Shown here one piece after another: positions 11,084 through 39,053 of a DNA stretch of 44,205 nucleotides. Numbering within the stretch: the first letter of the stretch is position 1; each line of letters opens with the position of its first letter. The stretch covers positions 1 to 44,205 of the forward strand of contig JBFFNX010000002.1 of the NCBI GenBank assembly GCA_041562995.1, given 5' to 3'. The translations under genes and the position numbers were made by a program. Origin of the DNA: Desulfurivibrionaceae bacterium (lineage in GTDB: Bacteria; Desulfobacterota; Desulfobulbia; Desulfobulbales; SURF-16). The notes below the pieces were generated by a model. It did no database searches and was not told the DNA's origin. It saw nothing but the letters and a program-made list of their open reading frames with translations.

Positions 11084-12840
11084 TGGACGATTTATTTGCA
11101 GCGGTTTTTGACGAACTGGTTGACAGCGATGACGAGCGCTTGGCCCTCCTCGGGTCAATTGCCGCCATGCTACCAGGTGTCTCTATCGCCATTGTCAAGA
11201 AAGAGGGCAGGGTCGTCGGCGATTTGCCCGATGAGTCCATGGAGATTCTTGACTCCCTGCTGCGCAAGGCCCAGGGGGCAACGGAAATCGTCAGTGCTGA
11301 AAATTCCATGGGAGCGTGGAGCTATGCCTTTTGCCTGAAACCGCCTGACACCCTTGTCTTTACACTTCCGGCCTACGGCCGCGATATTTGTGCCGACCCT
11401 CTCCTTTCTCAGTTATGTGCCAATACCTTGCAACTTGCCCTTGTGCGGAATGAGAAAAACGAGGCAATGCTCGAATCTGAACAGCTCCATCGCCAGATAG
11501 ATGTTTTGAAAAAAAAGCACTCGATGCTCATTGATGACAATCATGATCAATATCTCCGCCTCCAGGAAAACGAGAAGGAGTACGCCAAGGAGCTTGAAAG
11601 TGAGATTGCCCGCCAGACAAAAGAGCTCCGGGAAACGAATCAACAACTTGAAGATGCCAGCAGGTTGAAAAGTGAGTTCCTGGCCAATATGAGCCATGAA
11701 CTGCGGACCCCCATGAACGCCATTATTGGTTTCTCAGGTCTTCTTCTTGAGGCAGAGCTCAATGAGGAACAGCTCGATTTTATTCAGACAATTAGAAATG
11801 CGGCGGATAGTCTTCTTGTTTTGATCAATGACATCCTGGACTTGGCAAAAGTCGAATCCGGCAAACTCGATTTGGCCTCGGATATTGTTTGTCTGGAGGA
11901 TCTTGCCCGCAGTGTCAGTGAAATGCTGGCAGCCCAAGCGGCCAACCGGGGAAATAGCATCAGGGTGGATATTGATTCTTCGCTGCCCCCCCTGGTACTT
12001 GGTGATGAGGTCCGTTTACGGCAGATTTTGATCAACCTGGTTGGCAATGCCTTAAAATTTACCGAAAATGGTACCGTTGATATCACTCTGAAAGGTGGAA
12101 AGGCAAAAGGGAAAGATCAGGTCATTTTTGAGGTTTGTGATACGGGTATCGGAATTCCAGCCCATCGGCTCGATGCCATTTTTGAAAAATTTACCCAGGC
12201 GGACGGTTCCACTACCAGAAAATATGGGGGCACGGGCTTAGGGCTTTCTATTTGCTATCAGCTCGTGGAACTAATGGGTGGCCAGATTACCGTTGACAGT
12301 ACCGAGGGTGTGGGGTCAGTCTTCCGTTGCGTTATTCCACTTCCCAAGGTCAGCGGCGAGGCACAGGAGAGCAAAAAGGCCGAGGTGTTAACAGCTTCAA
12401 AAGCCGTTACTGAGAATGGTGCCAGTATCACAGTGCTTCTTGTGGAAGATAACCTGGTGAACCAGAAACTGGCCAAGCTCCTTATTCAGCGCCAGGGCTG
12501 CGAGGTGGAGGTGGCCGGCGATGGCCTTGAGGCCCTTGAGTCTCTGAAGACTAAAAAAATAGATCTTGTCCTCATGGATGTCCAAATGCCAAATTTGGAT
12601 GGCTTGGAGGCCACCAAAAAAATACGTGACATTGAAGGGCTGGCTGAGGAGAGGAAAAAATACGCGAGCCTTCAGGACGCAAACAAGCACCTGCCCATTG
12701 TCGGTTTGACGGCCAGTGCCCGTAAAGAAGACGAACAGAGTTGCTATGATGCCGGCATGGATGGTTTCCTGACCAAACCGATTAATAAGGACAAGTTCGC
12801 TGAGACCTTAAATGCCTACAGGGAAAAGGTTGTGATGTGA
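11083..12840 (+). CDS. Cytoplasmic hybrid sensor histidine kinase/response regulator
   Basis: H-box '[14 protein letters not shown]', N/G boxes '[10 protein letters not shown]' and 'DTGIGI...GGTGLGLSI', and a C-terminal REC 'VLLVEDN...[10 protein letters not shown]...TKP'. No TM segment is visible in the roughly 190-aa N-terminal region. The start overlaps the HDOD stop (TAATG). Confidence 0.9.
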
Positions 12841-24074: not shown

Positions 24075-25025
24075 GTGGGACATCGAATATCTCTTGGCGC
24101 TGTTGTGGTGCCGATGGTGGCTTTCTGGCTGCTTTCCATAGCTGTCCCGGCATTTGCCTTTCTCTATGTGGAGGAGAATGCCCCCCTTCCCCATCTCCAG
24201 TTTCAAGAGGTGGTTTCTGGGAAAATGAAGGCCTTTGATGGGAGTATAAAACGACCACTTGTTCTCATTTTTTGGGGTGCGGATATTGATACTAAGAGAG
24301 AGCGGGCCATTGAGGTTCTTGGTTATATCCAGGAGGCCCGTGCCTTTTATCAAGAGAGAAATATTGAATTGGCTGCCGTTTTTGTCCAGCCGGAACAGGT
24401 ATCTTTGCTGAAAGAGGTTGTCGACCGGGTGCACCTTGATTTCCCAATCTATGTGGATAGTGAGAGTCAATCCTTTGAAAAATTAGGGGTGTATGTGATG
24501 CCTTCCATCCTCATTGTCAGTGAGGATGGTATTGTTCACAAGGGTTTGGGCTATACCCGTAATCTTGAGGATATCCTCCACGGTGAAATTAAAATCATGC
24601 TCCATGAAAAAACCAGAGAAGAGGTTAACTCTGAGTTGCATCCGGACATTGTTGAGAGGACCACGGCCCAGCGTCGGGCCCGCCTTGATTATAATTACGC
24701 CCTTAATCTTGTTCTGCGCCAGAAGCTTGATTTGGCCCTTGAAAAACTGGACATGGCCCTGGAGAAGGACCCGGAATTTCTCCCGGCCCTGGTTGAGAAA
24801 GGCTGTCTTTTGGTGAAAAAGGAAAAATTTCAGGAGGCTGCAGGGTTCCTTGAACGAAGTCTCGGCCTGGCCCCTGAATTTAAGCGGGCCTTAACCTGTA
24901 AGGACGAGCTCAAGGCTGCTGAGCGTCAGAAGGGGCAGGGGGCAAAGGCTCCCGGGAAATCAGATCCGGCTTCCTGGGGCTTTTTTGCGGATGATGGGGA
25001 GGAGGGGAGTGACTCCCCAGAATGA
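24075..25025 (+). CDS. Secreted TlpA-like thioredoxin-fold protein lacking CXXC, fused to a TPR-like C-terminal region
   Basis: A signal/anchor helix is followed by 'PLVLIFWGADIDTK', where redoxins carry FW..WCxxC, and by 'MPSILIVSEDGIV' (cis-Pro loop context). The C-terminus has 'YNYALNLVLRQKLDLALEKLDMALEKDPEF' TPR-like helices and an acidic tail. GTG start. Confidence 0.55.
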   Translation: MGHRISLGAVVVPMVAFWLLSIAVPAFAFLYVEENAPLPHLQFQEVVSGKMKAFDGSIKRPLVLIFWGADIDTKRERAIEVLGYIQEARAFYQERNIELAAVFVQPEQVSLLKEVVDRVHLDFPIYVDSESQSFEKLGVYVMPSILIVSEDGIVHKGLGYTRNLEDILHGEIKIMLHEKTREEVNSELHPDIVERTTAQRRARLDYNYALNLVLRQKLDLALEKLDMALEKDPEFLPALVEKGCLLVKKEKFQEAAGFLERSLGLAPEFKRALTCKDELKAAERQKGQGAKAPGKSDPASWGFFADDGEEGSDSPE

Positions 25026-25076
25026 TACCTCAGGCAATGAGGGGGCACGGCTTGTTGCCGATGTGGAAAGATGGGT

Positions 25077-25988
25077 TTAGAGGCCAGCTTCTTGCAACTC
25101 TGTGAGGAGTTCTTGCTGTTTTTTAGACAACTCTTTAGGGATCTCGATATTGATTTTCACCATGAGGTCGCCTTTAGGGCCTTTGGGGCCTTTCGGCAGA
25201 CCTTTCCCTTGAAGGCGGAGTTTGCCGCCAGCCTGCATGCCGGCCGGAATCTTGACATTAAGCTCTTTGCCGTCCAGGGTGGGCACGGCTATCTTTGTTC
25301 CCAGGGCCGCCTGGCTAAAGGGGATCTTTTTCTCGTAGATAAGGGTGCTGCCATCCTGTTGAAATAGGGCGTGGGGCTGGACGTTTACCTTGAGGTAAAG
25401 ATCGCCTGCCGGACCACCCATCTGGGAGGGGCCACCCTTACCGGAAACCCGGAGTTTTTTACCAGACTCGATACCTGCCGGGATTTTCACAGACACCCGG
25501 TCGTTGATATGGGCCAAGGCAATGGTCCTTTCCGTGCCGCTGGCAACTTCCTCCAGGGTAACCCAGAGCTCCATGATCATGTCTTGACCCTTCACCGCTT
25601 GCTGTTGAAAACCCCTGCTGCCGGCGCAACCGCTGGATTGGGAGAAAAAAGACTCAAAAGGGCTGCCGGAGCCGCCGGCCTGATTGAAACCACCGCCGAA
25701 ATTGATGCCAAACTCGCGGAAAATGGAGCCCAGGTCACTGCCCCGAAAGATGTCCTCCTGGGAATAGCGCTGGGAGAAGCCTGTCGAGCCGTAGGTGTCG
25801 TACTGTTTGCGTTTTTCCGGGTCGGAGAGCACGGCATAGGCCTCGTTGGCCTCTTTGAATTTTTCCTCTGCCGCCTTATCACCAGCGTTCTGATCAGGGT
25901 GGTACTTCATGGCCAATTTGCGATAGGCCTTTTTGATAGCAGCACTGTCGGCTGTTTTATCGACACCTAATATTTTATAATAATCCAT
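25077..25988 (-). CDS. cbpA: J-domain co-chaperone without zinc-finger (CbpA-like, class II DnaJ)
   Basis: 'DYYKILGV...[18 protein letters not shown]' contains the HPD motif. A G/F-rich linker and C-terminal substrate-binding repeats follow. There are no CXXCXGXG repeats. Confidence 0.85.
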
Positions 25989-26058
25989 GGGTTTTTCTAT
26001 TTTTTGTTACAGAAGGTTAAAACAGTAAATAAAGTCAGCAAGTTTTTGTAGTTTCATG

Positions 26059-26087
26059 ACTATAAGATTGGTTGCCTTCTTTGACAA
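26059..26087 (-). promoter_or_regulatory. Candidate sigma-70-type promoter for the J-protein gene
   Basis: On the minus strand: TTGTCA, 17-nt spacer, TATAGT. It lies about 70 nt upstream of the ATG at 25988. Confidence 0.35.
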
Positions 26088-26311
26088 GGATTAGCTGCAT
26101 TCTTGACCCTAAAAGAGTTTGGCCCAATCGTGGTTAAAGTGCAACAGAGAGTTCAGTACAGACCTGTCTGGATCAGATGTGTGATATTTCTGGTGGTCGG
26201 CGGTGGCTGGCTGGGCCCGTGAAATGATGATGTTTGTAGGGCGTGGATAATTTAGGATTTTGGGCCAAGGGTAACAAATTGAGGTACTCAAAAGCCATAA
26301 CCTGGCGAGGA

Positions 26312-26968
26312 TCAGGATGAAATTTTCTCCAACAGGTTGATTTCGCCGATAACAACAAGCACATCCCCTTCGCAAAGCGTGTCATCAGCCTTAGGGATAA
26401 AGGTGTATTCTCGTTCCCCCTTTCTTCGCGTGGCAATCACCTGGATGCGATACTGGTTGGTCAGGTTGAGCTCGCGGAGGGTTTTCCCTTGCCATTGCAG
26501 GATAATCATCTCTTTAACGACCATTTCCTTGTTAAAGGGGAAATGGTCGATAAAACCTGGGATGGTAATGCGGTTTGCCAGCTGTCTGGCCGCCATATGC
26601 TCAGGAATGACGACCTCATCAACACCGATTTTTTTCAGTAATTTTGCATGATCGCCATTGGTTGCTTTCACCCAGACCAAGGGGACGCCCAGTTCTTTAA
26701 GGTACATGGCAATCATGGCACTGCCAGCGATGGAATCACCAATGCTGATTAGGACGTGGCTGAGGTCGGCGATCCCCATCTGGACGAGGGCCTCTTTGTT
26801 GGTCGCATCCGCCTGTAGCACTTGGGTAAAGATGCTCTGGGCCTGGTGGACGTATTTGGGGTTTAGGTCGACACCAAGGACGTTCACACCGGCATTGGTC
26901 AAGACCTCGCCGAATTTATAACCAAATTTGCCAAGTCCGATGACACCGACCTGAATGAATTTTGTCAT
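26312..26968 (-). CDS. ktrA: K+ uptake system RCK/NAD-binding subunit (KtrA/TrkA-type)
   Basis: 'VGVIGLGKFGYKFGEVL' Rossmann motif, and a TrkA_N plus TrkA_C layout in about 218 aa. GGAGAA SD before ATG 26968. Confidence 0.88.
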   Translation of the reverse strand: MTKFIQVGVIGLGKFGYKFGEVLTNAGVNVLGVDLNPKYVHQAQSIFTQVLQADATNKEALVQMGIADLSHVLISIGDSIAGSAMIAMYLKELGVPLVWVKATNGDHAKLLKKIGVDEVVIPEHMAARQLANRITIPGFIDHFPFNKEMVVKEMIILQWQGKTLRELNLTNQYRIQVIATRRKGEREYTFIPKADDTLCEGDVLVVIGEINLLEKISS

Positions 26969-27015
26969 GGTAATTCTCCATGTATGTGTTCTTGCTCGCA
27001 AAGCAAAGTTTTACT

Positions 27016-28383
27016 TCAACCAATCAGCATGTTTTTTTGGGGCCATTGGTAGAATAATTCCTGGTGAAATCCGTGGATGGCGGCGAGCAGGAGTAAGGGT
27101 CCCAGGCGGCCGATGAACATGAGGGCGGTAATGATCCATTTGCCGGCAAGAGAGAGCTTGACGGTGAGGCCGGTGCTTAATCCCACGGTGCCAAAGGCAG
27201 AGACCACCTCAAATAACACCTCAAGGAAGAGCCCCCTGGCCTGGGGATGGGGAATGTCGCCGCCCTCGGTCATCATCAGGGCCAGGGTTGCCGTAAAGAC
27301 GATAACCATGGCAAAAACAGCAAGGATCAGGGCCTTGGACACGGCATCATCCTCCACCGCGAATTTGTTGATAACGACCTGCCGTCTTCCCATCAGCTGG
27401 GCGCCCACAAAGGCGCCCAGGACACGGAAGGTTGTTACTTTGATCCCGCCGGCACAGGATCCGGGGGCACCGCCGATCAGCATGAGAATCAGCATGACCA
27501 GCAGTGAAACATTGGTCATCTGGCCGATGGCGAGGGTGTTGAAGCCGGCGGTGCGGCAGGTCACTGACTGAAAGAGGGCGGTGAGGATGGATTCGTGGAG
27601 GGGGGCGTTGCTGTGTGCACCGATAAATTCAGCCAGGAAAAGGGCAACAGCGCCGATCCCGATTAACAGCAGGGAGGTTTTGATAACGGTGCTGGAATAC
27701 CAGCTCAGTCCAGGGGGCTTGTTGGCTTGAGCTCCTCGTGTTTTGGCGGCAACGCTATGCTGCAATTCGATGAGCACCGAAAATCCGAGCCCCCCCAGGA
27801 CGATAAGGATCATAAAAACGATATTGATCCCCCAGTTACCTTTCAGGGCCATGAGGCTCTGGTCATGCAGAGAAAAACCGGCGTTGCAGAAGGCAGAAAC
27901 CGCATGAAAGAGGGCGGAGTAGAGGGAGAAATGCTCTGGGGCCATGATGAAAATGAGCAGAGCGCCCAGCCCCTCAATAACAAAGGTCCAGAGGACAATG
28001 GCCTTGAGAACGCTCCCCATGTCAAAGGTTCGATCATGGAGAATGGTATGCCCCACCGCGATTCGGTCGGTTAACGAGATTCTGTGCCTCAAAAAATAAA
28101 AGGCCAGACTGGTAAAAGTCATGATGCCCAGGCCGCCGATCTGGATAAGGACAAAAATAACGTTTTGGCCAAATCTGGAAAAAAAGGAGCCGGTGCTGAC
28201 CACGCTGAGGCCGGTGACGCACACGGCAGAGGTGGCAGTAAAAAATGCATCCGGCCAGGAAAGGGGAGACCCGCTGGTGAAGCTTACCGGTTGGTGCAGA
28301 AGCAGGGCGCCGATGCACAGGGCCAGGCCAAAGAAGAGAACGGGCAGGGCAATGGGTGGAATGGTCTTTCGTCGGTGCGACAT
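27016..28383 (-). CDS. ktrB: K+ transporter membrane subunit (KtrB/TrkH family)
   Basis: Polytopic membrane protein with repeated pore-loop motifs ('TATSAVCVTGLS', 'AVSAFCNAGFS', 'SVTCRTAGFN', 'VVSAFGTVGLSTG'). ATG at 28383; an alternative TTG is at 28443. Confidence 0.88.
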   Translation of the reverse strand: MSHRRKTIPPIALPVLFFGLALCIGALLLHQPVSFTSGSPLSWPDAFFTATSAVCVTGLSVVSTGSFFSRFGQNVIFVLIQIGGLGIMTFTSLAFYFLRHRISLTDRIAVGHTILHDRTFDMGSVLKAIVLWTFVIEGLGALLIFIMAPEHFSLYSALFHAVSAFCNAGFSLHDQSLMALKGNWGINIVFMILIVLGGLGFSVLIELQHSVAAKTRGAQANKPPGLSWYSSTVIKTSLLLIGIGAVALFLAEFIGAHSNAPLHESILTALFQSVTCRTAGFNTLAIGQMTNVSLLVMLILMLIGGAPGSCAGGIKVTTFRVLGAFVGAQLMGRRQVVINKFAVEDDAVSKALILAVFAMVIVFTATLALMMTEGGDIPHPQARGLFLEVLFEVVSAFGTVGLSTGLTVKLSLAGKWIITALMFIGRLGPLLLLAAIHGFHQELFYQWPQKNMLIG

Positions 28384-28461
28384 GGGCTGGGTATGCTTGG
28401 TGCTAAAATGCGTGGCGAGAAATGATGGCCTTAATGGTTCCAAACGGATAGCGATCAGGCT

Positions 28462-28484
28462 CCTGGCAATAACAAGATGCCAGG
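28462..28484. repeat. Inverted repeat CCTGGCA-N9-TGCCAGG
   Basis: 7-bp perfect arms in the usp/ktrB spacer. Confidence 0.4.
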
Positions 28485-28532
28485 GGCCGGATCGATATCG
28501 AGAAGTAAAGGGGGAGACAAGAGGATCCGCCC

Positions 28533-29402
28533 TTATCGTAAAATCAGCACAGAGGATTGACTGTGGTTAACGAGCTTACCCACGAGATTTGGGGAGAATA
28601 TTTTGCCAAGCAGTGATTTCTTGCCCATCCATAAGGCCACCATGTTTTCACGGCTGACCTCTGCGACGTATTCTTCAAGGTCTTCCGGGCGGACCAGTTT
28701 GATCCAGGCATTGATCTGCCGTTCGGCATAATATTTCAATATCTGTGCGATGCTGTTCTCAACGCCGGCATTGCCCTCTGTGCCCTTGTTATCGGTAAGG
28801 CCGACTATTTTCAGCTCAGCCTGGTAGAGGGTGACGATCTGATTAATCATCTCCAGTGATGACTGGCTGACATGGGTCTGGTCAAGGCAACAGGTAATGG
28901 TGGTGGGTACTTTCTTTTCCTTGATGACCACCACGGAACAAGCCGCCTTTTTGGCAACCTTCTGGGGCAAGTCGACTTCTCCCTTCCATTGGCTATCGAG
29001 ACCCTTGGTGCAGCCGAGAACAATAAGGTCTGACTCTTGCTCACGCGCTTCAGCCAGGATTTCCTTGGCAGGATCACCAACCCGTATTTTTAACAACAAA
29101 TTTTTCCGAGAGGCAACTGCAGGTTTGTGGTCGGTAAGCTCCCATGAGCCGTTTTTCAGGATGAACTCTTGATTGTCGGCATTCCCCCCATAGGGGAGGT
29201 CGTTGGCATCGAACAGACTGATAAAATCTTGTCGGTATTGATGGAGAGTTTTCACAAGTGCTTCGTCAGGTTTGTTGTCTGGGCCTGCTGGCTGTACTGC
29301 CAGCAGGGTTATGTCCGCCCAGGTATTTGCCGCAAGTTTTGCCACCTCGCCGACAATCGTTGCACTATAAGAATGCATGTCTAAAGCTGTTATTATTCTC
29401 AT
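28533..29402 (-). CDS. Tandem universal stress protein (2x Usp domain)
   Basis: 289 aa with two Usp-like halves ('MRIITALDMHSYS...DLIVLGC...VVVIK' and '...MVALWMGKKSLLGKIFSPNLVGKLVNHSQSSVLILR'). GAGGAA SD. Confidence 0.8.
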   Translation of the reverse strand: MRIITALDMHSYSATIVGEVAKLAANTWADITLLAVQPAGPDNKPDEALVKTLHQYRQDFISLFDANDLPYGGNADNQEFILKNGSWELTDHKPAVASRKNLLLKIRVGDPAKEILAEAREQESDLIVLGCTKGLDSQWKGEVDLPQKVAKKAACSVVVIKEKKVPTTITCCLDQTHVSQSSLEMINQIVTLYQAELKIVGLTDNKGTEGNAGVENSIAQILKYYAERQINAWIKLVRPEDLEEYVAEVSRENMVALWMGKKSLLGKIFSPNLVGKLVNHSQSSVLILR

Positions 29403-29404
29403 GA

Positions 29405-30217
29405 TTAATTCCTCGCTTTATTTTGGCAGAGCAGGATTGGTGATGGGCATTGGGCAAGCAGTTCAAGCCTGGGGCTCTTTCTGACCGGAAATGATGAGGC
29501 CACCAATCGGTATTTCTTCAGCATTGCCGCAACGCCTTCAGGGGTTCCGGACACCACCATGCTGTTGGCGGGCGTTATGTTAGCCTCCTTTAAGAGTGCT
29601 TCTGCCTCGACAAGGACGCTGCCCGCCTCTTCCTTATTTATGGAGATGGTCGCTTCCGTTTCCTGGTAACGATAAAAAATAAGGTCAAAATGAATGGATT
29701 TACCCTTGAGCAGGCTAAGCGCACGAGGGATCACCGTATTATGGTCAACGCCATCACCGCAAAGCAGGGCAACAGAGTCGCTTGCGACCAAGTTCTTGAC
29801 CACCAGGATTGGACATGGTGTTTTGCTGTAGAGGGGGGAAGATATCAGTCTATAAAAATCGGTGATATCGGAGGTGTTTAAGTTGCCTTCGATAAAAAGA
29901 TCGTAGCCGCCGTTGCGCAGTTCTTCCAGAAACGCATTGTCCCGATCACCGATGAGAACTTTTGGCGAACCAATAAAGGGACACGGGACTTTTTCCGTAT
30001 TCAGCAGACGTTGGACAGCCTGATGACCCGCCTCCAGCAAACCCCGCTCCCAGGTGCGCCGCACCCAACCTGTGCCTCCAGAGTGTCTTTTTTTGTCTGG
30101 CACTTCCACATGACCTGCCTGCAACTGCAGAGCGAGAATTTCCACCAGTTGTGATGCATATCTGAGGGCAATGCTGGAAGGGAGATTTTCATCCAAAGCT
30201 AGAAGACCCATATTCAT
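29405..30217 (-). CDS. Divergent tandem Usp-like protein
   Basis: About 270 aa with two alpha/beta Usp-like halves ending '...CPILVVK' and '...SPILLC'. No clear G-x2-G-x9-G(S/T) ATP motif is visible. Start at 30217 (AGAGGT SD); the ORF-track ATG is at 30244. Confidence 0.55.
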   Translation of the reverse strand: MNMGLLALDENLPSSIALRYASQLVEILALQLQAGHVEVPDKKRHSGGTGWVRRTWERGLLEAGHQAVQRLLNTEKVPCPFIGSPKVLIGDRDNAFLEELRNGGYDLFIEGNLNTSDITDFYRLISSPLYSKTPCPILVVKNLVASDSVALLCGDGVDHNTVIPRALSLLKGKSIHFDLIFYRYQETEATISINKEEAGSVLVEAEALLKEANITPANSMVVSGTPEGVAAMLKKYRLVASSFPVRKSPRLELLAQCPSPILLCQNKARN

Positions 30218-30258
30218 ATCAATTACCTCTTTCTTTCCTGCCATGAGACATGGCGTGG

Positions 30259-30648
30259 TTATAGGGTTTGTCTTATTTTTTGTTCCGCTTTGCTGATAAC
30301 CGCACTGATTTCACCAATCTTGAACGGTTTTGCTAGAAAATCAAAAACACCTTTTTGAAATGATTCCTTGGCGGTTTCCATGGTGGCGAAGCCAGTGATC
30401 ACAATGATCTCGGTGGCGGGTGATTTTTCTTTGACCGCGGTGAGAAACTCCATGCCGTCCAGACCTTCCATTTTCAAGTCGGTGATGACGATATCAAAGG
30501 AACGTTCATTGGTCCGTTTCAGGGCCTCGGCGCTGACCGTAAAGGTTTCAACCTCGTACCCCTGTTTTTCCAGGGATGGTTTGAGACGTTTGCTGACTAT
30601 GGGCTCATCATCGAGAATCAGGATGCTGGTTTTTTGTTGGGCGCTCAT
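30259..30648 (-). CDS. Stand-alone response regulator receiver
   Basis: 129 aa. 'ILILDDE', 'DIVITDLKMEG', 'VITGF' and 'AKPF' are present. The start ATG overlaps the upstream stop (ATGA). A GGAGG SD precedes it. Confidence 0.9.
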   Translation of the reverse strand: MSAQQKTSILILDDEPIVSKRLKPSLEKQGYEVETFTVSAEALKRTNERSFDIVITDLKMEGLDGMEFLTAVKEKSPATEIIVITGFATMETAKESFQKGVFDFLAKPFKIGEISAVISKAEQKIRQTL

Positions 30649-33212
30649 ATGTTTACCTCCATGAGTTTGTTGAATTTATCTATGTATAGATTTATGTGTT
30701 GCTCGCTCAGCATTTTCACATCAAGCTGCCGGGTGAAACCGACCAGCCAGCCGAGCACTTGCAGGCGCTGTAACATGCCTTCTTTGTCCATTTTTTTAAT
30801 GCGGGCCACGACCAGATCGTCATGCAGCTCAACCCGGAAATCATGGCGGGCCAAGACGCGCCCCAGAAATTCTGCCCGCCGGCAGCGTCTGGTCTCGTCT
30901 GTCACCCCGCCAAAAAAACGGAAATAGGCATAGTTGTCGTTGATGTTATCGGTCACATAGCTGTCGATCATGGTGAAATGATAGCCCAGCCGCAGACTGA
31001 CATTGGCATATTCTTTCGAGATCACCGCCAGGTTCTGGCCAACATATTTGGGTGATGCCAGTTCCGTTGAGAAGGTCCTGGTCAGGCTGGACATGAAACT
31101 TCTCATATCCACCGACATGGGCTCATTGTCCCAGGCCAGTGGATGGCTGAGGCCCTTCAGAAGGGCCAGCATGGGTACCGAGAGGATCGCCTCCGGCATT
31201 ACCTCGCCTTTTCGGGAGCCTGACCGCAGCCCGCCATCAATGTCGATTAGCACGAGGTCAAGCGGAATGTTCAACCGCAATTTGCCGGAGGTGGTCTTCG
31301 GATCATGTTGTTGGTAATAATTGCGGTCAATAAGTTCTTCCACGGCCTTTTCATGGACAAAACGGGTAATATCATGAAGAGTGCGGCAGGCCACTGGCGT
31401 AAAACTCTTTTCTGCCGGATCCAGAAGGTTGAGCGGGGCAATATTTTTCAGCACCCTCCGTAACAGCCTGTACTCCGAGGTTTCCTCAATGGCTTCTTCG
31501 CTCAGTTCATACAAGCAGAGTTCATTGACCAGGCCTTGATAGACGATATTGGCCTCGGCATCGACGGTGATCTCCTGGCCAGGATGCAGGAGCTCGGTGG
31601 CATTGCCGGTATTGACAATGCACGGTACCCGAAACTCCCTGGCAATGGTGGCCAGATGTCCGGTGGGTGAGCCAATATCAGTCAGAATGGCGCTGACCTT
31701 GGCCATGACTTTAGCGAGCAGAGGTGACGCAAAGCGGGTCACCAGAATGGCCCCGGCAGGAACGTCACGAAGCTTTGAGTCCTCGGAGAACATATAGACT
31801 TGACCCGTAGCAACACCGGCCTGGGCAATTTCCCCCTGATCACGGAAGAGAACCGGGTACTGACGAAGGAGTTTGGCAAGCTCAGGGGCCTTGGGTGCAT
31901 CTGTCTGGTCAATATTTAAGGGCCGGGACTGAAGGACGATGACCTGGCCTTGCCTGTCAATGGCGAACTCAATGTCCTGCGGTTTTTTGAAATATTTCTC
32001 GATAAGCAGCCCTGTTGCCGCAATCTGTTTAATTTGGTCGTTATTGAGGCAAGCCTGGGTTTGCCGGTCAATGGCTACCGGGTTCAGGGCCGTGCCGCCA
32101 CCAGCAATCGGGTTGAGAGCTGATTTCTTACGCACCAGTTGCATTTCTTTGACATGGTGAGGGCTAGTGCGGTCGATGGTAAAGCGATCGCCACTGACTT
32201 GCCCAGATACGACCGGAGCGCCGAGACCCCATGTGGCGCTGAGTTGCATGGCCCCGCCATGGCCATGCTGAGGGTCAAGGGTGTACAGAACTCCGCTGGC
32301 AACAGCGGCAACCATAACCTGGCAGGCGACCGCCATTGTTACTTCGTCTTCGTGGAAGCCAATTTTCTGGCGATACATAAGGGCAGTTTCACTGTAAGCG
32401 CTGGCCACCACTTGGCGGTAGGCGTTAGCAAGTTCTGCGGCCGGAACATTGAGAATAGTTTTATATTGACCGGCGAAACTGCGTTCGCCATCTTCGCCCC
32501 AGGCACTGCTTCGGACTGCGAATAATACTGGTTTGTGTTTGTCGCTGCCGCTCAGCTGCCCCAGGCTGCGGGTGAGTTCCTTCTCCAGCTTGTTCGGCAG
32601 TTTACTGTTGAGAATAAGTTTTCGGATCTTTTTGGTAGCATCTTCCAGAGAAACTTTTTCGTCTCTCCAGGCCCCGAGAATTCCGTCAATATTCTCCTGT
32701 AGATTATTCTTTGCAAGAAACGCGTGAAAGGCGGCGCCGGTCACCGCAAAGCCGTCAGGTATTCTTAAGGCGAGGAAATTGTGAATTTCCGCAATGCTTG
32801 CATTTTTACCGCCCACCGATTCCGAAGAGTTACGGTTGATGGCGTTGTATGCGACGGTAAAGGGCCCAAAATGACAGTAAGGACGGCCTGCCAAATCCTT
32901 TTCGATCTCTGCTACGATTCGCCGATAAGTGTCGTGCAGTGCCATGTATTTATTAGGCGCGATGGTGTTAAGATCATGAATGAGTTTCAACACCTGGTCG
33001 CTTATCCGTTGACAGGTGGTTTCGATATAATGGCGGTCAAAGATATAATTGCCGCCTAATTTGTCATTAACTTCAGCAATCATTTCCAGAACATTGTTAT
33101 TGATGGTCAGTATGTCCTGAAATTTGCTGAATAGAACCGAAAAGGGCACAGCAGCGGTCATTGCTCTCTTGCGTGGCAATAGCTCAATGATATTTTTAAT
33201 TATTTTTTTCAT
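30645..33212 (-). CDS. PpsA-like protein: ATP-grasp (PPDK_N) + phosphohistidine swivel domain + non-canonical C-terminal domain
   Basis: 'GGKNASIAEI', 'VRSSAWGEDGERSFAGQY' and 'QDIEFAID' belong to the PEP synthase nucleotide-binding domain. 'TDIGSPTGHLATIAREFRVPCIV' is the swivel His. The last roughly 290 aa lack the 'GTNDL' and 'CGE' motifs of the PEP/pyruvate TIM barrel. The first ATG is at 33212; a TTG at 33296 is possible. Confidence 0.8.
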   Translation of the reverse strand: MKKIIKNIIELLPRKRAMTAAVPFSVLFSKFQDILTINNNVLEMIAEVNDKLGGNYIFDRHYIETTCQRISDQVLKLIHDLNTIAPNKYMALHDTYRRIVAEIEKDLAGRPYCHFGPFTVAYNAINRNSSESVGGKNASIAEIHNFLALRIPDGFAVTGAAFHAFLAKNNLQENIDGILGAWRDEKVSLEDATKKIRKLILNSKLPNKLEKELTRSLGQLSGSDKHKPVLFAVRSSAWGEDGERSFAGQYKTILNVPAAELANAYRQVVASAYSETALMYRQKIGFHEDEVTMAVACQVMVAAVASGVLYTLDPQHGHGGAMQLSATWGLGAPVVSGQVSGDRFTIDRTSPHHVKEMQLVRKKSALNPIAGGGTALNPVAIDRQTQACLNNDQIKQIAATGLLIEKYFKKPQDIEFAIDRQGQVIVLQSRPLNIDQTDAPKAPELAKLLRQYPVLFRDQGEIAQAGVATGQVYMFSEDSKLRDVPAGAILVTRFASPLLAKVMAKVSAILTDIGSPTGHLATIAREFRVPCIVNTGNATELLHPGQEITVDAEANIVYQGLVNELCLYELSEEAIEETSEYRLLRRVLKNIAPLNLLDPAEKSFTPVACRTLHDITRFVHEKAVEELIDRNYYQQHDPKTTSGKLRLNIPLDLVLIDIDGGLRSGSRKGEVMPEAILSVPMLALLKGLSHPLAWDNEPMSVDMRSFMSSLTRTFSTELASPKYVGQNLAVISKEYANVSLRLGYHFTMIDSYVTDNINDNYAYFRFFGGVTDETRRCRRAEFLGRVLARHDFRVELHDDLVVARIKKMDKEGMLQRLQVLGWLVGFTRQLDVKMLSEQHINLYIDKFNKLMEVNI

Positions 33213-33408
33213 TACTACATCTTCCGGTTCTTGCTGTAGGTGTGGTTGCTGTGCCTGGTTGGACGGGTGTGATTTGGTGGCCTCTTTCCCATGCAATGCT
33301 GCTGCATGGGAAAGGGGCCTGGATTCATGTTGACAGTAGTGATTATAGCGTAAAAATACTTGCTACTTCCATATCCTGCTTGAAACTAAGTAACAGTGTC
33401 CACCTTAA

Positions 33409-34176
33409 TTAGTGGGCACCGCTCTTACCCTTGAAGGCGATGCCCATGAAAAGACCTGCCATGACCGCGATCGCCACTGACATGATGCCGAACCAGAGTC
33501 CATTGCCATACGCCATTTTAGAAAGTTGTTGTGGAAATCCCACCTGTTGCAGGGTCAATGGCTTGCTGGAGCTGCCTATGATGCTGCCGTCCTGCAGCGC
33601 AGCCACCTCGACGGCATAATCTCCAGGTTTCATGTTGGATGGTATAGACATCGTGGTCTCATAGGATTTTATCCCGCCTGCTTCCGGACCATAGCTTACG
33701 CCACCGGGTGTGCTTGAATAGAGGGCATCCTTGCTCTTGAGACGGATAAACTCCTGCAGGAGGAAATCATTATCACTGCTTGCTGGAGATATTTCGATGC
33801 GGCTTTTCAGGGCTGGGAAGCCGAAATCCTGCGCCGCTGAAGTATCCAGATCCATCAGGCCGCTTCCGGTGGCAACCTTATAAACTTTTGGCGCATTTTC
33901 AAAGATGAGGTCGCTGGTGTTCATCCACAACAGGCCGGCGACTTTACCTTTTCTTTTTAGGTGTAGTTCCTCTCCTTCACCACTCAGCCTTACCACAATC
34001 TCGGCCGCTGCAGGGATTTGGCCAGTTACCTTGACGGTGGTACCGTTATAAAAGGTGCCGATATCCACGGTTTCCGGGGTGAGGTTGATGTCCAGGGTGG
34101 CCCCTTTGGCATTGCCACTCTGTAGCCAGAGGCCAGTCAGCAGAATAAAAAAGTATAATTTATGGTTTTTCTTCAT
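33409..34176 (-). CDS. TIGR02186/Alph_Pro_TM-like membrane protein (signal peptide, periplasmic domain, C-terminal TM)
   Basis: 255 aa. Signal peptide 'LYFFILLTGLWLQSGNA', 'GLLWMNTSDLIFENAPKVYKV', 'MKPGDYAVEV' and the C-terminal helix 'LWFGIMSVAIAVMAGLFMGIAF'. The family assignment is from memory of the profile. Confidence 0.55.
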   Translation of the reverse strand: MKKNHKLYFFILLTGLWLQSGNAKGATLDINLTPETVDIGTFYNGTTVKVTGQIPAAAEIVVRLSGEGEELHLKRKGKVAGLLWMNTSDLIFENAPKVYKVATGSGLMDLDTSAAQDFGFPALKSRIEISPASSDNDFLLQEFIRLKSKDALYSSTPGGVSYGPEAGGIKSYETTMSIPSNMKPGDYAVEVAALQDGSIIGSSSKPLTLQQVGFPQQLSKMAYGNGLWFGIMSVAIAVMAGLFMGIAFKGKSGAH

Positions 34177-34177
34177 T

Positions 34178-35113
34178 TTAGTGCCCTCCCTTCATGGCAA
34201 TCATAAAATCAGGGGTCATAAGGAGACCAGCCAGCATCTTCACGCAGACCAGGAGTACAAGGGATGCTAGGAGGATTTTGAGTTGATCACCCTTCAGCTT
34301 TTTGCTGACCTTGGTGCCAACTTGGGCGCCAAGGGTTGAGCCGAGTAACAGCAGAACAGCCAGGACAAAGTCCACGGTATGGTTGGTCTTCGCCTGCATG
34401 ATGGTGACATTGACACAGGTGAAGAGAATCTGGAAAAGGCTGGTTCCTACCACAACATGCATGGGCATGCGCAGAAGATAGACCATGACCGGGACCATGA
34501 TAAAGCCGCCGCCAACACCCATGATCGCCGCGAGCACGCCTACGAAAACGCCCAGAAAAAGCGGCACGAGTATGGAGAGTTCCACCCCCGATTTGTCAAA
34601 ACGGGTCTGGAAGGGGATTTTTTTGAATATCAGTGCGTAAGTGGATTGTTTCTTCGGCGTTGCTGAGATCTCAACCACTTCCGATGCCGTTGTTTTTTTC
34701 AAACTCATCAGGCTTTCGATGAACATGTAGCTGCCAACTCCACCTAGCATCAAGACATAGGTGAGACTGATCAAGAAATCGGCGTTGCCCATGGCGCGCA
34801 GGATCTTGATGAGCTGAACGCCCACCGTGCCGCCGGCAACACCGCCGATCAGCAGCAGCACACCCATTTTGACATCGACGTTACCGAGTCGCCAGTGGGC
34901 CAAGGTGCCGGATGTCGAGGCGCCAACGATCTGATTTGAATCCGAGGCAGCTGCCACGGTGGCAGGAATACCAAACATCATGAGCAGAGGGGTCATGAGA
35001 AACCCTCCTCCGACGCCAAAGATTCCAGACAGGAGCCCGACAAAGCCTCCAAGCCCGAAGATAGTAAGTATGTTCACGCTGTTACCAGCGATGGGAAGAT
35101 ACATGTGCCACAT
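34178..35113 (-). CDS. TauE/SafE (DUF81) family anion exporter/permease
   Basis: Polytopic membrane protein with Gly-rich repeated helices ('GGFVGLLSGIFGVGGGFLMTPLLM', 'LAAIMGVGGGFIMVPVMVYLL'). Start at ATG 35113 with an AAGGAG SD; the longer ORF to 35251 is probably leader. Confidence 0.85.
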   Translation of the reverse strand: MWHMYLPIAGNSVNILTIFGLGGFVGLLSGIFGVGGGFLMTPLLMMFGIPATVAAASDSNQIVGASTSGTLAHWRLGNVDVKMGVLLLIGGVAGGTVGVQLIKILRAMGNADFLISLTYVLMLGGVGSYMFIESLMSLKKTTASEVVEISATPKKQSTYALIFKKIPFQTRFDKSGVELSILVPLFLGVFVGVLAAIMGVGGGFIMVPVMVYLLRMPMHVVVGTSLFQILFTCVNVTIMQAKTNHTVDFVLAVLLLLGSTLGAQVGTKVSKKLKGDQLKILLASLVLLVCVKMLAGLLMTPDFMIAMKGGH

Positions 35114-35185
35114 TGTCTCAGTGCTCCTTTGTTGTTTAGTATTGAAAGTTAAACCACGGTCCTGCATCACATGGTATGGCCCTAT

Positions 35186-35202
35186 TACAGATTTTGTGCC
35201 AG
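35186..35202 (-). promoter_or_regulatory. Weak candidate sigma-54 (-24/-12) promoter
   Basis: The minus strand reads TGGCAC-AAAAT-CTGT. The -24 element is perfect and the GG-to-G spacing is canonical. The -12 element is TGT rather than TGC. It lies about 75 nt upstream of the TauE ATG. Confidence 0.3.
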
Positions 35203-35434
35203 AGTGGTTGCGGGAGGGGGTGCGAAACACTGCTAAGGTATAAAAAAGCACATTAGTTCAGGAGCTTATTGTTTTTTTTAATAAAACGATCGAGGTGGTC
35301 AGGAAAGAAAGGTGACGACAAATGCAGAGCCTTCTGGATTTTCAGGAGAATGGCGAGGATGGTGTTATCTCCTTGTTTTTACGTAATTAGTTTGTTGTTA
35401 TGAGAAGTTGGGAGGATATGCCGAGCTGGGGGGG

Positions 35435-35450
35435 TGTTTCATAATGAAAT
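35435..35450. promoter_or_regulatory. Palindromic repeat copy 1: TGTTTCA-TAA-TGAAAT (candidate activator-binding site)
   Basis: Seen directly. One of three copies in the 658-bp spacer downstream of the NtrC-type gene and upstream of the TauE operon. Confidence 0.45.
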
Positions 35451-35569
35451 TTGTTTATTCCTTTATTGATGGCGTGCTTTGGATAGGGCGGTTGGAGATT
35501 CAGAAACGCAAAAGGGATTATCTTCTTAGCTGCAGGGAGTTATAGGGCAAAAGGGTATCGACTTCGGGA

Positions 35570-35585
35570 TGTTTCAATGTGAAAT
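35570..35585. promoter_or_regulatory. Palindromic repeat copy 2: TGTTTCA-ATG-TGAAAT
   Basis: Seen directly. Its centre is 135 bp from copy 1. Confidence 0.45.
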
Positions 35586-35681
35586 GCGAGGCTATCTGAA
35601 GAGGCCGGGCAGAGCCGACCTGGCAGAGCAGGAGGACTGGCAACTCCCGCAGGGCCTTCTGGGTCAAGGCCCAAGAGAAAG

Positions 35682-35697
35682 TGTTTCAGATTGAATT
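35682..35697. promoter_or_regulatory. Palindromic repeat copy 3 (degenerate): TGTTTCA-GAT-TGAATT
   Basis: Seen directly. Its centre is 112 bp from copy 2. There is one mismatch in the right arm. Confidence 0.4.
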
Positions 35698-35909
35698 ATT
35701 TTGTGTTTAACCAGGATGACAAGGTGAGGGCGGTCGTTGATTGCTGCCGGGATGATGCGAGGAGTTCATGGGAGGGGAAGGGTGGGCGGAAGTGGAGCAG
35801 AGAAGCGAACAGAATGAGAAGTGGAGCGCCGGGGCATGCCCCTGAAGGGGAACCTCTACCTTTCAGCACCATACACATGCCGAAAGCACATGGGATGGAA
35901 GGGTTGGGC

Positions 35910-37274
35910 TTAATTTTTGTCAGATTTATATTCCGGATCCAGGAGCTGGAATTTTTTCATCCGCCGCCAGAGGGTGGTTCGCGGCAGGTTGAGGATCACG
36001 CTGGCTAAGTTCTTGTTGTAGTTAGTTCTCGCAAGGACCTTGGCAATGTGTCTCTTCTCGACCTCTTCCAGGGGCATCAATTGTTCTGGTGGAGCAACAT
36101 TATCCGCTCGTTCCCTAAGCCTGGCCGGCAGATCACGAATCTGGATGCGCTTGGTGTCGGCCAAGGCCACGGCCCGCTGGATAATATTTTCCAGCTCCCG
36201 GACATTGCCTGGGTAGTCGTAGGCGGTCAGGATGTCCATAACCTGTGGGGAGACGCCCTTGATCTGCTTGTTAAAGGCCAGATTAAATTTATCAATGAAG
36301 TGGGAGATAAACAGGGGAATGTCATCGCCACGTTCGGCCAGGCGGGGGAGGTGGAGAGCCACTACATTGAGGCGAAAGAAGAGATCTTCCCGAAAGGTGC
36401 CTTTTTGCACAGCCTCCCGCAGATTTCTGTTAGTGGCGGCGATGATGCGAATGTCAAGATCGATGGGCTGGGTGCTGCCCACCCTCATGATCTGGCGTTC
36501 CTGCAGGACGTGCAGGAGTTTGACTTGCATGGAGGGCGGCATTTCGCCAATTTCATCCAAGAGGACGGTGCCCCCTTCCGCCGCTTCAAAGAGACCGATC
36601 TTGGTTCGGGTGGCTCCGGTAAATGCCCCCTTCTCATGGCCGAAGAGTTCGGTGCTGATCAATTCTTCCGTGAAGCCGCCACAGTTGAAATAGATAAAAG
36701 GATGTTCTTTGCGGGGGCTCAAGGTGTGGATTGCCCGGGCCACTATTTGCTTGCCGGTGCCGGTTTCGGCCTGTAACAAAACATTGCAGTTGACCATGGC
36801 CAGTTTTTTGATCATGGCTAAAATTTCCTGCATGGCTGGGCTGGCGCCCACGAAATCGGCCATGAGGGTATCCTTGGCCATGGCCACTTTCAGTTTTCGG
36901 TTTTCTTCCTGGAGTTCAATTTTTTCACGGGCCAGTGAGGCAAGAAGGCGGATGTCCTGACGTTTGCACGGCTTATGGATGTAGTGAAAGGCGCCTTTCT
37001 GGGTGGCGTCCAAGGCTGTTTCCACAGAGCCGTGGCCGGTTATGATAATAGCCTCGGTATCCTCCCGAAGTCGTTTCACCTCATTTAAGATAGTAAGGCC
37101 GTCCATGTCCGGCAATTGCAGGTCGATGAAGACAATTGAAAAGGGCGCCTGTTGCATGCGGACAAGAAAAGGGGTGCCGGCCTGGAAGACCTCCACTTCA
37201 AAGCCTTCTTGGTCCAGGACCCGTTTGACCAGTTGGCCTGCTATTTTTTCATCATCAATAACTGCTACTCGCAT
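35910..37274 (-). CDS. NtrC-family sigma-54-dependent response regulator (REC-AAA+-HTH)
   Basis: 'MRVAVIDDE...FIDLQLPDMDG', Walker A 'LLQAETGTGKQ', the 'ELFGHEKGAFTGA' GAFTGA motif, and a C-terminal Fis-type HTH 'NKNLASVILNLPRTTLWRRMKKF'. Confidence 0.92.
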   Translation of the reverse strand: MRVAVIDDEKIAGQLVKRVLDQEGFEVEVFQAGTPFLVRMQQAPFSIVFIDLQLPDMDGLTILNEVKRLREDTEAIIITGHGSVETALDATQKGAFHYIHKPCKRQDIRLLASLAREKIELQEENRKLKVAMAKDTLMADFVGASPAMQEILAMIKKLAMVNCNVLLQAETGTGKQIVARAIHTLSPRKEHPFIYFNCGGFTEELISTELFGHEKGAFTGATRTKIGLFEAAEGGTVLLDEIGEMPPSMQVKLLHVLQERQIMRVGSTQPIDLDIRIIAATNRNLREAVQKGTFREDLFFRLNVVALHLPRLAERGDDIPLFISHFIDKFNLAFNKQIKGVSPQVMDILTAYDYPGNVRELENIIQRAVALADTKRIQIRDLPARLRERADNVAPPEQLMPLEEVEKRHIAKVLARTNYNKNLASVILNLPRTTLWRRMKKFQLLDPEYKSDKN

Positions 37275-38718
37275 TGCTTGTCGTTACCTGTGGCGGTGTT
37301 TCAGAAGCTATTGGCAGTATAATTGAAAAGGTGGTGCCGACATTCATCTCGCTCTTCACCTCGATATAGCCGCCGTGCTTTTTAACTATACCATAAACAA
37401 TGGAAAGCCCAAGGCCGGTGCCCTTGCCGACCTCTTTGGTGGTATAGAACGGGTCAAAGATATGCTCGATATTTTCAGGGGCAATGCCCGTGCCGGTATC
37501 ATTGACATTGATTCTTATATGCCCTGGTGGGTCTTCCTGGGCATCAATATGAATCAGCCCCCCCTTGGACATGACGTGGATGGCATTCAGGAAAAGATTG
37601 AGGAAAACCTGTTGCAGCTTTTGCATGTCACCCCAAATAGGAGGAAGATCTTCCGGAATAGCTATCACAAGCCAGATTGCATTCAAGCGCAGTTCGTTGT
37701 CGATCAATTTTTTGGTGGAAGCGAGAATTTCTTTGATATTGAGGAGCTGGACCAATGGTTTTTTATCCCTTGAAAAGTCGAGAATGTTTTTGACCACCTC
37801 ACTGGCCCGATGTGTTTCGGTAATAATATCGGCGATGATTTCTTGCGCCTCTTCCTGCGAGAGGTCGAGAAAATCCTCGCGCAGGGTTTCAGCCGACAGT
37901 GAGATGTTATTGAGAGGATTGTTGAGCTCATGGGCGATACCTGATGAAAAGGTCCCAATGGCTGCAAGTTTTCTTGACTGGATGAGCTGCTCCTGCCTGT
38001 TGTCGAGTTCAGATGCCATGGTGTTGAAATCACGGATCAGGTCGGTGATTTCATCCTGTTGCGGGCTATGGTAATCCAAGGGCTTAAAATTCCCATTAAG
38101 GATGCTCCTCGTTGCCTGCTGTACAAAGGCGATTCGGTCAAGGACACTTTTGGCCTGCAGGCGCAAGCCAATAATAATAAAAAGAAAGAAGACGCCGGTG
38201 ATTAGAATGAAGCTGGAAATGGTAAACTTGAAACTGTTGCGTATCCTCAGCTGTTTATTGTCCAAGAGCTCTCGGGTTAAGTCCACCAGCGCCTTGCCCT
38301 TCTGGCGTACGCCATTTTTTTCAATGGGGGTAATAGTGCCGTTGGTACGTGAAGAGGTGGAAAAAATATGCCTGTAGCCGACCAGATTGGAGCGAAACTC
38401 ACGGAATTTTTCAAGACCGATCACCCTGACGATATCCTTTTCGTGTTTGCTGATATCGGCATCAATCCTGTCGAGATACTCCATGAGAATCTCAATATTT
38501 TCAGAGCCTACTTGCAGAAAATAGTTTTTTTCGTAGCGGCGAACCTCAAGCACATTGTCGAAAAGATTGTGAAAATCCTCAAGGGTGGTCAGCTTCTTTT
38601 CGATTGAGAAAAACTGATAGGAATAGGCGATAACCAACAAGCCTATAAAGATAAAAATCAGAAAGTTGAGGAGATTCATGCTCTTTCTGAGTGTCGATGC
38701 ATGGGTGGATGGCGTCAT
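37255..38718 (-). CDS. Membrane sensor histidine kinase (2 TM, periplasmic loop, HAMP, HisKA, HATPase)
   Basis: 'SGIAHELNNPLNNI' H-box, 'NLFLNAIH' and 'DTGTGI...GTGLGLSIV'. Its 3' end overlaps the NtrC-type gene by 20 nt out of frame. ATG at 38718; the TTG at 38757 is in the ORF track. Confidence 0.88.
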   Translation of the reverse strand: MTPSTHASTLRKSMNLLNFLIFIFIGLLVIAYSYQFFSIEKKLTTLEDFHNLFDNVLEVRRYEKNYFLQVGSENIEILMEYLDRIDADISKHEKDIVRVIGLEKFREFRSNLVGYRHIFSTSSRTNGTITPIEKNGVRQKGKALVDLTRELLDNKQLRIRNSFKFTISSFILITGVFFLFIIIGLRLQAKSVLDRIAFVQQATRSILNGNFKPLDYHSPQQDEITDLIRDFNTMASELDNRQEQLIQSRKLAAIGTFSSGIAHELNNPLNNISLSAETLREDFLDLSQEEAQEIIADIITETHRASEVVKNILDFSRDKKPLVQLLNIKEILASTKKLIDNELRLNAIWLVIAIPEDLPPIWGDMQKLQQVFLNLFLNAIHVMSKGGLIHIDAQEDPPGHIRINVNDTGTGIAPENIEHIFDPFYTTKEVGKGTGLGLSIVYGIVKKHGGYIEVKSEMNVGTTFSIILPIASETPPQVTTSNASSSY

Positions 38719-38864
38719 ACTCTTCTTGCTCCAGTGGTAACCCTCACAATTCAACAACGGAAAATGGTGCAGTCGGGCCTATAATAGAAATCATCGGGAC
38801 CAGGTCACTAGATCTGAGGTGACAAAGGATAGCCGCTGCAACGGTTTCAGAAAAAGGACAACAT

Positions 38865-38914
38865 CCCTGCCCCGTTGTCAACGTCTTCCTTCAAGTTGGG
38901 AATGCGGGGCAGGG
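38865..38914. repeat. Inverted repeat CCCTGCCCCG ... CGGGGCAGGG (10-bp perfect GC-rich arms, 30-nt spacer)
   Basis: Seen directly in the spacer between ssb and the sensor kinase gene. Confidence 0.45.
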
Positions 38915-39053
38915 TTGGGGATATAGGCTACGACTTGCTTTTTTGGCAGAGAGCAGTGAGGGCGGTGCGCAAGGAGCTGCTCAGGGATAGTGTGGCAAAT
39001 AGATTTGGCTGTATCTATAAAGATGTCTTTGTTTAATGTTGCTCATGGTGCCC

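Follow-up and report, generated by a model that had tools for sequence, protein, structure and literature searches.

What does a protein built like phosphoenolpyruvate (PEP) synthase, PpsA, do when its PEP/pyruvate barrel is missing and a lone receiver domain is translated in step with it? This question was raised by a stretch of 44,205 nucleotides (nt) from a Desulfurivibrionaceae bacterium (GenBank assembly GCA_041562995.1, contig JBFFNX010000002.1), called the window below, in which the gene of a PpsA-like protein that we named PPSL was followed on the minus strand by the gene of a stand-alone receiver, REC. Two-component systems and PEP-utilizer enzymes are among the best-studied phosphotransfer systems of bacteria. 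We know of no case in which two-component signalling and PEP-utilizer (swivel-histidine) enzymes are wired together. The occurrence of PPSL and REC in an operon of sensor-kinase and membrane-protein genes suggests an unstudied phospho-signalling device, namely a swivel-histidine enzyme with a new third domain that was locked to a receiver, had a sensor kinase in its module, and was found in more than 1,000 clusters from Thermodesulfobacteriota, Nitrospirota, and other anaerobes. Whichever way the phosphoryl group flows, such a device would be either a two-component system with an enzymatic output of a new type, leading to some phosphorylated product, or a new kind of receiver kinase.

The PPSL open reading frame (30645..33296 on the minus strand) comprised 883 amino acids (aa) when read from a TTG codon. 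The product was probably a protein of 855 aa (MKKIIKNII...) that started from the ATG at 33212, since the homologues, which were 853-865 aa long, aligned from there. A Pfam scan of PPSL returned PPDK_N (PF01326; E 4e-82, score 276 bits, cut-off 27) and the mobile domain of PEP-utilizers (PF00391; E 3e-19, score 69 bits, cut-off 23.1) and nothing else; PF02896, the TIM barrel of PpsA, was absent, and there was no Pfam match to HisKA, Hpt, or GHKL ATPase domains. All the motifs on which the original prediction was built were found in the translation: GGKNASIAEI (residues 134-143), RSSAWGEDG (234-242), SFAGQY (245-250), and QDIEFAID (412-419) of the ATP-grasp domain, GSPTGHLATIAREFRVPCIV (514-533) of the swivel domain, and RLGYHF...FRFFGGVTD (741-772) in the C-terminal part. 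The ATP-grasp residues K136, R234, S235, S236, E240, D241, Q412, D413, and E415 were invariant, and so was the catalytic His519, which sat in GSPTGH within the swivel motif and did not vary among 65 homologues.

The best sequence match of PPSL was PpsA (PDB 2OLS, 8A8E; E 5e-61), with which it had in common the order of the ATP-grasp and swivel domains and the T-x-H motif. However, PpsA models and structures aligned to PPSL residues ~120-574 only, matches to RPH (rifampin phosphotransferase), PPDK, and Enzyme I structures likewise ended at residue ~574, and ~119 N-terminal and ~285 C-terminal residues had no PpsA counterpart. The expectation of an extension of more than 100 aa before the ATP-grasp domain was thereby confirmed (~119-130 aa). 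Relative to PpsA this was an extra, family-specific N-terminal domain of ~120 aa, which was conserved throughout the PPSL family and had no significant match in Pfam or, when searched as a profile, in the PDB. The PEP synthase models TIGR01418 and NF005057 scored 320.5 and 338.8 bits (cut-offs 739.75 and 598) and matched over model positions 5-468 only, the RPH model NF041857 scored 237 bits against a cut-off of 999, and the Enzyme I model matched the swivel domain alone (26 bits against a cut-off of 342). Judged from these scores, PPSL belongs to the PEP-utilizer/dikinase superfamily and falls outside PEP synthase, RPH, and Enzyme I. If it acts as its homologue PpsA does, it would draw on the beta-phosphate of ATP. 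In the same superfamily, RPH and the prodigiosin ligase PigC/RedH have exchanged the acceptor domain for a new substrate, and their ATP-grasp similarity to PPSL was comparable (E ~1e-63 to 1e-70). However, their third domain was without similarity to that of PPSL and they have no receiver partner; moreover, the swivel domain of RPH is C-terminal, after the substrate domain, whereas that of PPSL was central.

In place of the TIM barrel, PPSL had an unrelated alpha+beta domain of ~300 aa. The C-terminal 300 aa gave no Pfam match even at E<=10, a 19-sequence profile of the domain found no match in the PDB, which as searched included PpsA, PPDK, and Enzyme I structures, and the alignment by hhalign of a 35-sequence profile with the C-terminal 330 aa of E. 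coli PpsA had a probability of 0.1%. Two AlphaFold models were obtained, the first with a pLDDT of 67 and the second, from a more diverse alignment, with a pLDDT of 81 and a pTM of 0.72. Both consisted of a long helix and then antiparallel beta-meanders with helices packed on them, and this predicted fold is incompatible with a (beta/alpha)8 barrel. Foldseek comparison of both models with the PDB gave a best E of 0.014 and TM-scores of at most 0.45; no fold was assigned from the top matches, which were AlaRS C-Ala, the T4 MotA C-terminal domain, YbjN/type III chaperone-like proteins, RecJ DHHA1, and arginine kinase. On the combined evidence of the Pfam, PDB profile, hhalign, AlphaFold, and Foldseek results, a divergent TIM barrel was rejected, and the barrel was indeed missing from PPSL as predicted.

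The C-terminal and swivel domains were the best-conserved parts of PPSL. In a diverse family alignment, (near-)invariant residues of the C-terminal domain were found around or on one long helix (C609, H613, D614, H620, E621), in an IDIGGG loop (D657, G661), at Y735, at H745 in RLGYHF, at F766, G768, and G769 in FRFxGG, and further C-terminal (R776, R779, D799, R828, Q829, D831). Those that did not vary in the whole family were H613, D614, H620, E621, Y735, H745, F766, G768, G769, and R779. Two Gly-rich loops were present, namely IDIGGG and FRFxGG, the latter followed by RRxRR. The invariant polar residues were kept over ~1,350 clusters and in paralogues. We infer that the two strand/Gly-rich-loop/helix elements, together with the Arg cluster and the His, Asp, and Glu residues, resemble a phosphoryl- or anion-binding active site.

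The family proved to be large. A word-indexed homologue search gave 1,760 matches, the best 120 of which were full-length, 52-84% identical, and matched PF00391 and PF01326 only. When the C-terminal domain alone was used for an exhaustive profile search, 1,347 clusters (50% identity) matched with E<=1e-3 and 674 with E<=1e-30; in the best 150 clusters the domain occupied the same position in ~850-aa proteins, or the sequences were fragments. In a scan of one genome per GTDB species, 320 matching stretches were confirmed. They came from Desulfobulbales, Desulfobacterales, Desulfatiglandales, Desulfarculales, Syntrophobacterales, and Nitrospirota, and PPSL was also present in a metagenome-assembled genome of Bipolaricaulota. 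PPSL can be tested experimentally in two of its hosts that are in culture, namely Halodesulfovibrio aestuarii and 'Thermodesulfobacteriota bacterium B35', an isolate among the genomes of the GTDB scan. Full-text literature searches and the paper on the D. vulgaris sigma54 regulome (PMC4641369) contained nothing on the PPSL family, on PF09608, or on the pairing of a PpsA-like protein with a receiver.

The names given to the homologues in their sources were 'pyruvate, water dikinase', 'PEP-utilizing enzyme', 'phosphohistidine swiveling domain-containing protein', and 'hypothetical'. The first two would fit a PPSL that was an ordinary, divergent PEP synthase of gluconeogenesis with an incidental receiver next to it. 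We consider this extremely improbable: PF02896 was absent, the match to the PpsA models stopped at the swivel domain, neither hhalign nor the predicted fold pointed to a barrel, and the synteny and fusions with REC described below were not incidental. PPSL also differed from PpsA in being coupled or fused to a receiver and in belonging to an operon of signalling and membrane genes rather than a metabolic one. Thus, a widespread mis-annotation as 'pyruvate, water dikinase' is corrected.

The coupling of PPSL to a canonical receiver was found in the sequence as described. The TGA of PPSL overlapped the ATG of REC (ATGA), the Shine-Dalgarno motif GGAGG lay 7 nt upstream of this ATG, and REC matched PF00072 with an E of 4e-29 and had D13, D14, D57, T85, and K107. 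The original prediction had named the conservation of the pair among the points to be checked. Of 80 fetched loci, 78 were informative because the contig ran on past PPSL. A REC orthologue was located directly 3' of PPSL in all 78. REC began 6-8 residues before the hydrophobic-DD motif except in two loci (up to 10), and a Shine-Dalgarno motif preceded it in all but one locus. In approximately half of the loci the REC start overlapped the PPSL stop by 4 to 41 nt, and in most of the others it was 3-25 nt past the stop. Moreover, three of 150 representative proteins were fusions of PPDK_N, PEP-utilizers, the C-terminal domain, and REC, and a search seeded with one fusion yielded at least 46 distinct fusion clusters. 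These proteins were up to 1,003 aa long and 44-84% identical to the seed, came from four data sources and contigs of up to 1.5 Mb, and joined the C-terminal domain to REC through a linker of only 5-18 residues. The phospho-site residues of REC were conserved in 79 orthologues and in 46 of 46 fusion clusters. This Rosetta-stone evidence argues that PPSL and REC function as one unit, with REC beside the new domain.

According to the original prediction, no cognate kinase was near the receiver. This part of it failed, because a HAMP-HisKA-HATPase kinase was encoded 4.6 kb upstream, paired with a sigma54-dependent regulator and syntenic across the family, and in other lineages this kinase was the first gene of the same operon. 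The gene order on the minus strand of the window was histidine kinase (HK), sigma54 regulator, intergenic region, tauE, alph_Pro_TM, ppsL, rec, a gene for a 279-aa protein, and a gene for a 289-aa universal stress protein (USP), with gaps of 0-200 nt within the operon (Table 1). The HisKA and HATPase_c domains at this locus were confined to the separate kinase. The regulator was found upstream in 49 of the 62 loci with sufficient sequence, the kinase adjoined it in at least 34 of 45, and a homologous kinase was a member of the module in all lineages examined. The alpha1 helix of REC was far less variable than that of the regulator (0.63 versus 1.69 bits), but helix 1 of the kinase DHp domain was likewise conserved, so that the conservation of REC alpha1 fits either phosphodonor, the kinase or PPSL. 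An anti-phage defence system was considered as well and rejected: PADLOC gave no match for PPSL, TauE, Alph_Pro_TM, or the USP proteins and only generic receiver matches for REC.

Several loci lacked the sigma54 regulator and combined the remaining genes in one operon. Namely, locus L086 had a single HK-TauE-Alph_Pro_TM-PPSL-REC operon with a 4-nt overlap, L087 had HK-TauE-Alph_Pro_TM-PPSL-REC-REC, and L084 and L085 had HK-TauE-Alph_Pro_TM-PPSL::REC-REC, with PPSL fused to a receiver. The kinase of the fused lineage was 35-41% identical to that of the window, and its one full-length TauE was 65% identical. Since HK, TauE, Alph_Pro_TM, PPSL, and REC recurred both in loci of the window type and in the single-operon lineages, these five were the invariant core. 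In the minimal operon REC is the kinase's only possible cognate receiver. Thus, the transfer from His519 to Asp57 that had been proposed is plausible, but the phosphorylation of REC can now be explained without it, since the module includes a conventional kinase. The core also offers a first way into the function of TauE and Alph_Pro_TM, a pair that is uncharacterised. Beside the HK-TauE-Alph_Pro_TM-PPSL-REC operon we noticed a ~270-aa protein with Cytidylate_kin2 (PF13189) and BON domains on three unrelated contigs (L084 4837-5646, L086 11004-11816, L087 6547-7092); L084 also encoded a second Cytidylate_kin2 protein and then a receiver.

The reading that we favour, although with somewhat less than even confidence, is that the kinase phosphorylates REC and that REC gates PPSL, in which a phosphoryl group taken from ATP moves by way of His519 to an acceptor at the new domain. 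PPSL and REC would then act together in the cytoplasm as the effectors of a two-component module that is conserved and linked to the envelope. The sensor kinase would phosphorylate REC at Asp57, and REC, which would be produced at a 1:1 ratio to PPSL and sit beside the C-terminal domain of the latter (tethered there, in some lineages, by the linker of 5-18 residues), would switch PPSL on or off. Following the superfamily mechanism of PEP synthase and RPH, the ATP-grasp domain would load the phosphoryl group onto His519 and the swivel domain would ferry it to the third domain. There, more speculatively, it might pass to a non-pyruvate acceptor, for which the likeliest candidate is an anionic small molecule or a protein tied to the TauE/Alph_Pro_TM pair. 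We favour this reading for three reasons. First, to our knowledge, all superfamily members characterised so far (PpsA, PPDK, RPH, GWD) have the binding site of the phosphoryl acceptor in their third domain; second, the C-terminal domain of PPSL has an enzyme-like set of invariant residues; and third, the minimal operon offers REC a conventional donor and no other output.

A number of points weigh against this proposal. In the fusions REC is at the C-terminus, where hybrid kinases usually have their acceptor and not a regulatory input, and a phospho-His exposed beside the active site of a receiver should hand over its phosphate unless sterically prevented. Additionally, the regulator, rather than REC, may be the main partner of the kinase in the window lineage because their genes overlap there.

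The same observations bear on a different reading, which goes back to the original prediction and which we regard as possible but doubtful. In it PPSL is an atypical ATP-grasp histidine kinase, and the phosphate of His519 goes straight to Asp57 of a REC that is docked at the C-terminal domain. Given a phospho-His as donor, receiver domains catalyse their own phosphorylation, and it is chemically likely that a receiver next to an exposed phospho-His takes the phosphate. The translational coupling and strict synteny of PPSL and REC are consistent with such a transfer, the C-terminal REC fusions with their short linkers have a hybrid-kinase-like topology, and REC, with all its phospho-acceptor residues, was unusually conserved (mean identity among orthologues of 70% versus 54% for the REC domain of the sigma54 regulator). 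As in PPSL, hybrid histidine kinases and CheA-CheY have an ATP-loaded His on a mobile domain and a receiver directly downstream or fused C-terminally; however, PPSL was without their HisKA, Hpt, and GHKL ATPase domains, and its catalytic module was an ATP-grasp. Enzyme I and EI-Ntr (PtsP) offer a conceptual parallel, being swivel-His proteins that pass phosphate to a small regulatory partner, but Enzyme I is loaded from PEP at its TIM barrel and has no ATP-grasp, and its partner HPr or NPr accepts on a His, whereas the partner of PPSL would accept on the Asp of a receiver. If so, phosphorylated REC, and a second receiver (REC2) where present, would act on the TauE/Alph_Pro_TM complex or on other targets, with the canonical kinase as a second donor or a phosphatase. 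PPSL might then, tentatively, represent a new class of phosphodonor, a non-GHKL 'histidine kinase' in which a swivel His loaded by an ATP-grasp exchanges phosphate, as donor or as recipient, with a CheY-like receiver that docks on the new domain, and could possibly stand at the head of a relay to the TauE/Alph_Pro_TM membrane complex that resembles the phosphotransferase system. On the other hand, we know of no precedent for a swivel His of a PEP-utilizer donating to a receiver, the module has a conserved conventional kinase with REC as the sole receiver in the L086 operon, and a 300-aa domain with enzyme-like invariant residues exceeds the needs of a docking site.

Further insight was provided by paralogues. 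In Halodesulfovibrio the operon went on past REC with PPSL2 and PPSL3 in a translationally coupled tandem (L081 8001-13609), and tandem paralogues were also found near the cluster in L006 (11899-16886), L007, and L080 (48-3704). PPSL2 (WP_051177113) had lost the ATP-grasp motifs but kept the N-terminal domain, the swivel His, and the C-terminal motifs. Therefore, the swivel His and the new domain are the indispensable parts of PPSL, and at least some members of the family must be loaded in trans. A His that is loaded by something other than its own ATP-grasp, together with the two receivers beside PPSL in several lineages, would agree with a reversed or multi-step relay, in which the kinase phosphorylates REC, REC passes the phosphate to His519 acting like an Hpt domain, and His519 passes it to the C-terminal domain or a second receiver, the ATP-grasp being an alternative input. 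We find this improbable. The ATP-grasp was intact and conserved in PPSL1, the window protein included, and a paralogue could equally load PPSL2 in trans.

The region upstream of tauE pointed to the control of the operon. A sigma54-type promoter element was followed by tauE after ~75 nt, and the canonical TGGCA[CT]-N5-TTGC was found at the equivalent place in 47 of 70 related loci, for which we estimate a chance expectation of ~0.01 per region. Further upstream, the palindrome TTCA-N3-TGAAAC occurred three times in the window, where chance alone would give 0.15 copies. This palindrome was present in 59 of 85 loci, mostly in the same intergenic region and in Halodesulfovibrio as well, and the copies are probably enhancer sites of the adjacent sigma54 regulator. 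Because the promoter and the palindromes were conserved upstream of tauE, the upstream kinase/regulator pair very probably drives the tauE-ppsL operon. An Rfam search of positions 25000-39000 found no riboswitch or other RNA at E<=1. Many loci of the Desulfobacterales type and Halodesulfovibrio had an extra gene for a single-domain USP-like protein (~145 aa) between the sigma54 promoter and tauE (e.g., L021 4124-4561, L022 4147-4602, L009 2531-2991, L081 2794-3210), which was absent from the window and its nearest relatives.

Table 1. Features of the PPSL locus, in positions of the window.
Feature	Position	Strand	Basis or remark
PPSL, 855-aa PpsA-like protein (probable start)	30645..33212	-	ORF, Pfam, homologue alignment
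PPSL N-terminal extension, ~130 aa, family-specific, not in PpsA	32823..33212	-	model and structure alignments
PPSL ATP-grasp nucleotide-binding domain PF01326, aa 131-440; GGK, RSS..ED, and QDIEF motifs intact	31893..32822	-	Pfam
PPSL swivel phosphohistidine domain PF00391, aa 485-553	31554..31760	-	Pfam
Codon CAT of invariant His519	31656-31658	-	
PPSL new C-terminal domain, aa 556-855	30648..31547	-	family alignment, AlphaFold
REC, stand-alone receiver, 129 aa	30259..30648	-	PF00072
Codon of phospho-acceptor Asp57 of REC	30478-30480	-	
Sensor histidine kinase (HAMP-HisKA-HATPase_c)	37255..38757	-	3' end overlaps start of regulator gene
Sigma54-dependent response regulator (REC, AAA+, HTH_8)	35910..37274	-	
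TauE/SafE (TSUP) permease	34178..35113	-	start ATG 35113 (MWHMYLPIAG); invariant neighbour
Alph_Pro_TM (PF09608) protein, N-terminal signal-like segment, C-terminal membrane-spanning segment	33409..34176	-	invariant neighbour
279-aa protein	29405..30244	-	without Pfam match; syntenic in most loci
Universal stress protein PF00582, 289 aa, room for two USP domains	28533..29402	-	Pfam; syntenic in most loci
Sigma54-type promoter element TGGCAC-N5-CTGT	35187..35201	-	upstream of tauE
Palindrome TTCA-N3-TGAAAC, three copies spaced ~110-135 nt	35436-35448, 35571-35583, 35683-35695	-	upstream of sigma54-type promoter

Downstream of REC, the 279-aa protein had no Pfam or NCBIfam match and was weakly similar to the adjacent USP protein (pairwise E 0.046). 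The operon was followed on the same strand, after a gap of ~90 nt, by trkH/trkA (26312-28443, minus strand), and no convincing terminator was seen in the usp-trkH interval. Co-transcription of the trk genes with the operon is therefore possible at this locus, but it is not a trait of the family. The suggested parallel with the control of K+ transport was abandoned as a family feature, as no more than 7 of 80 loci had trkH/trkA within 8 kb, and their orientation varied; the invariant membrane partners were TauE and Alph_Pro_TM.

Elsewhere in the window, a separate signalling pair unrelated to PPSL was encoded at 10238-12840 on the plus strand, namely an HDOD protein and then an abutting hybrid histidine kinase (HisKA-HATPase_c-REC). 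Finally, a 1,368-aa protein encoded at 1305-5411 on the plus strand had Pfam matches that were all to TPR-type repeats.

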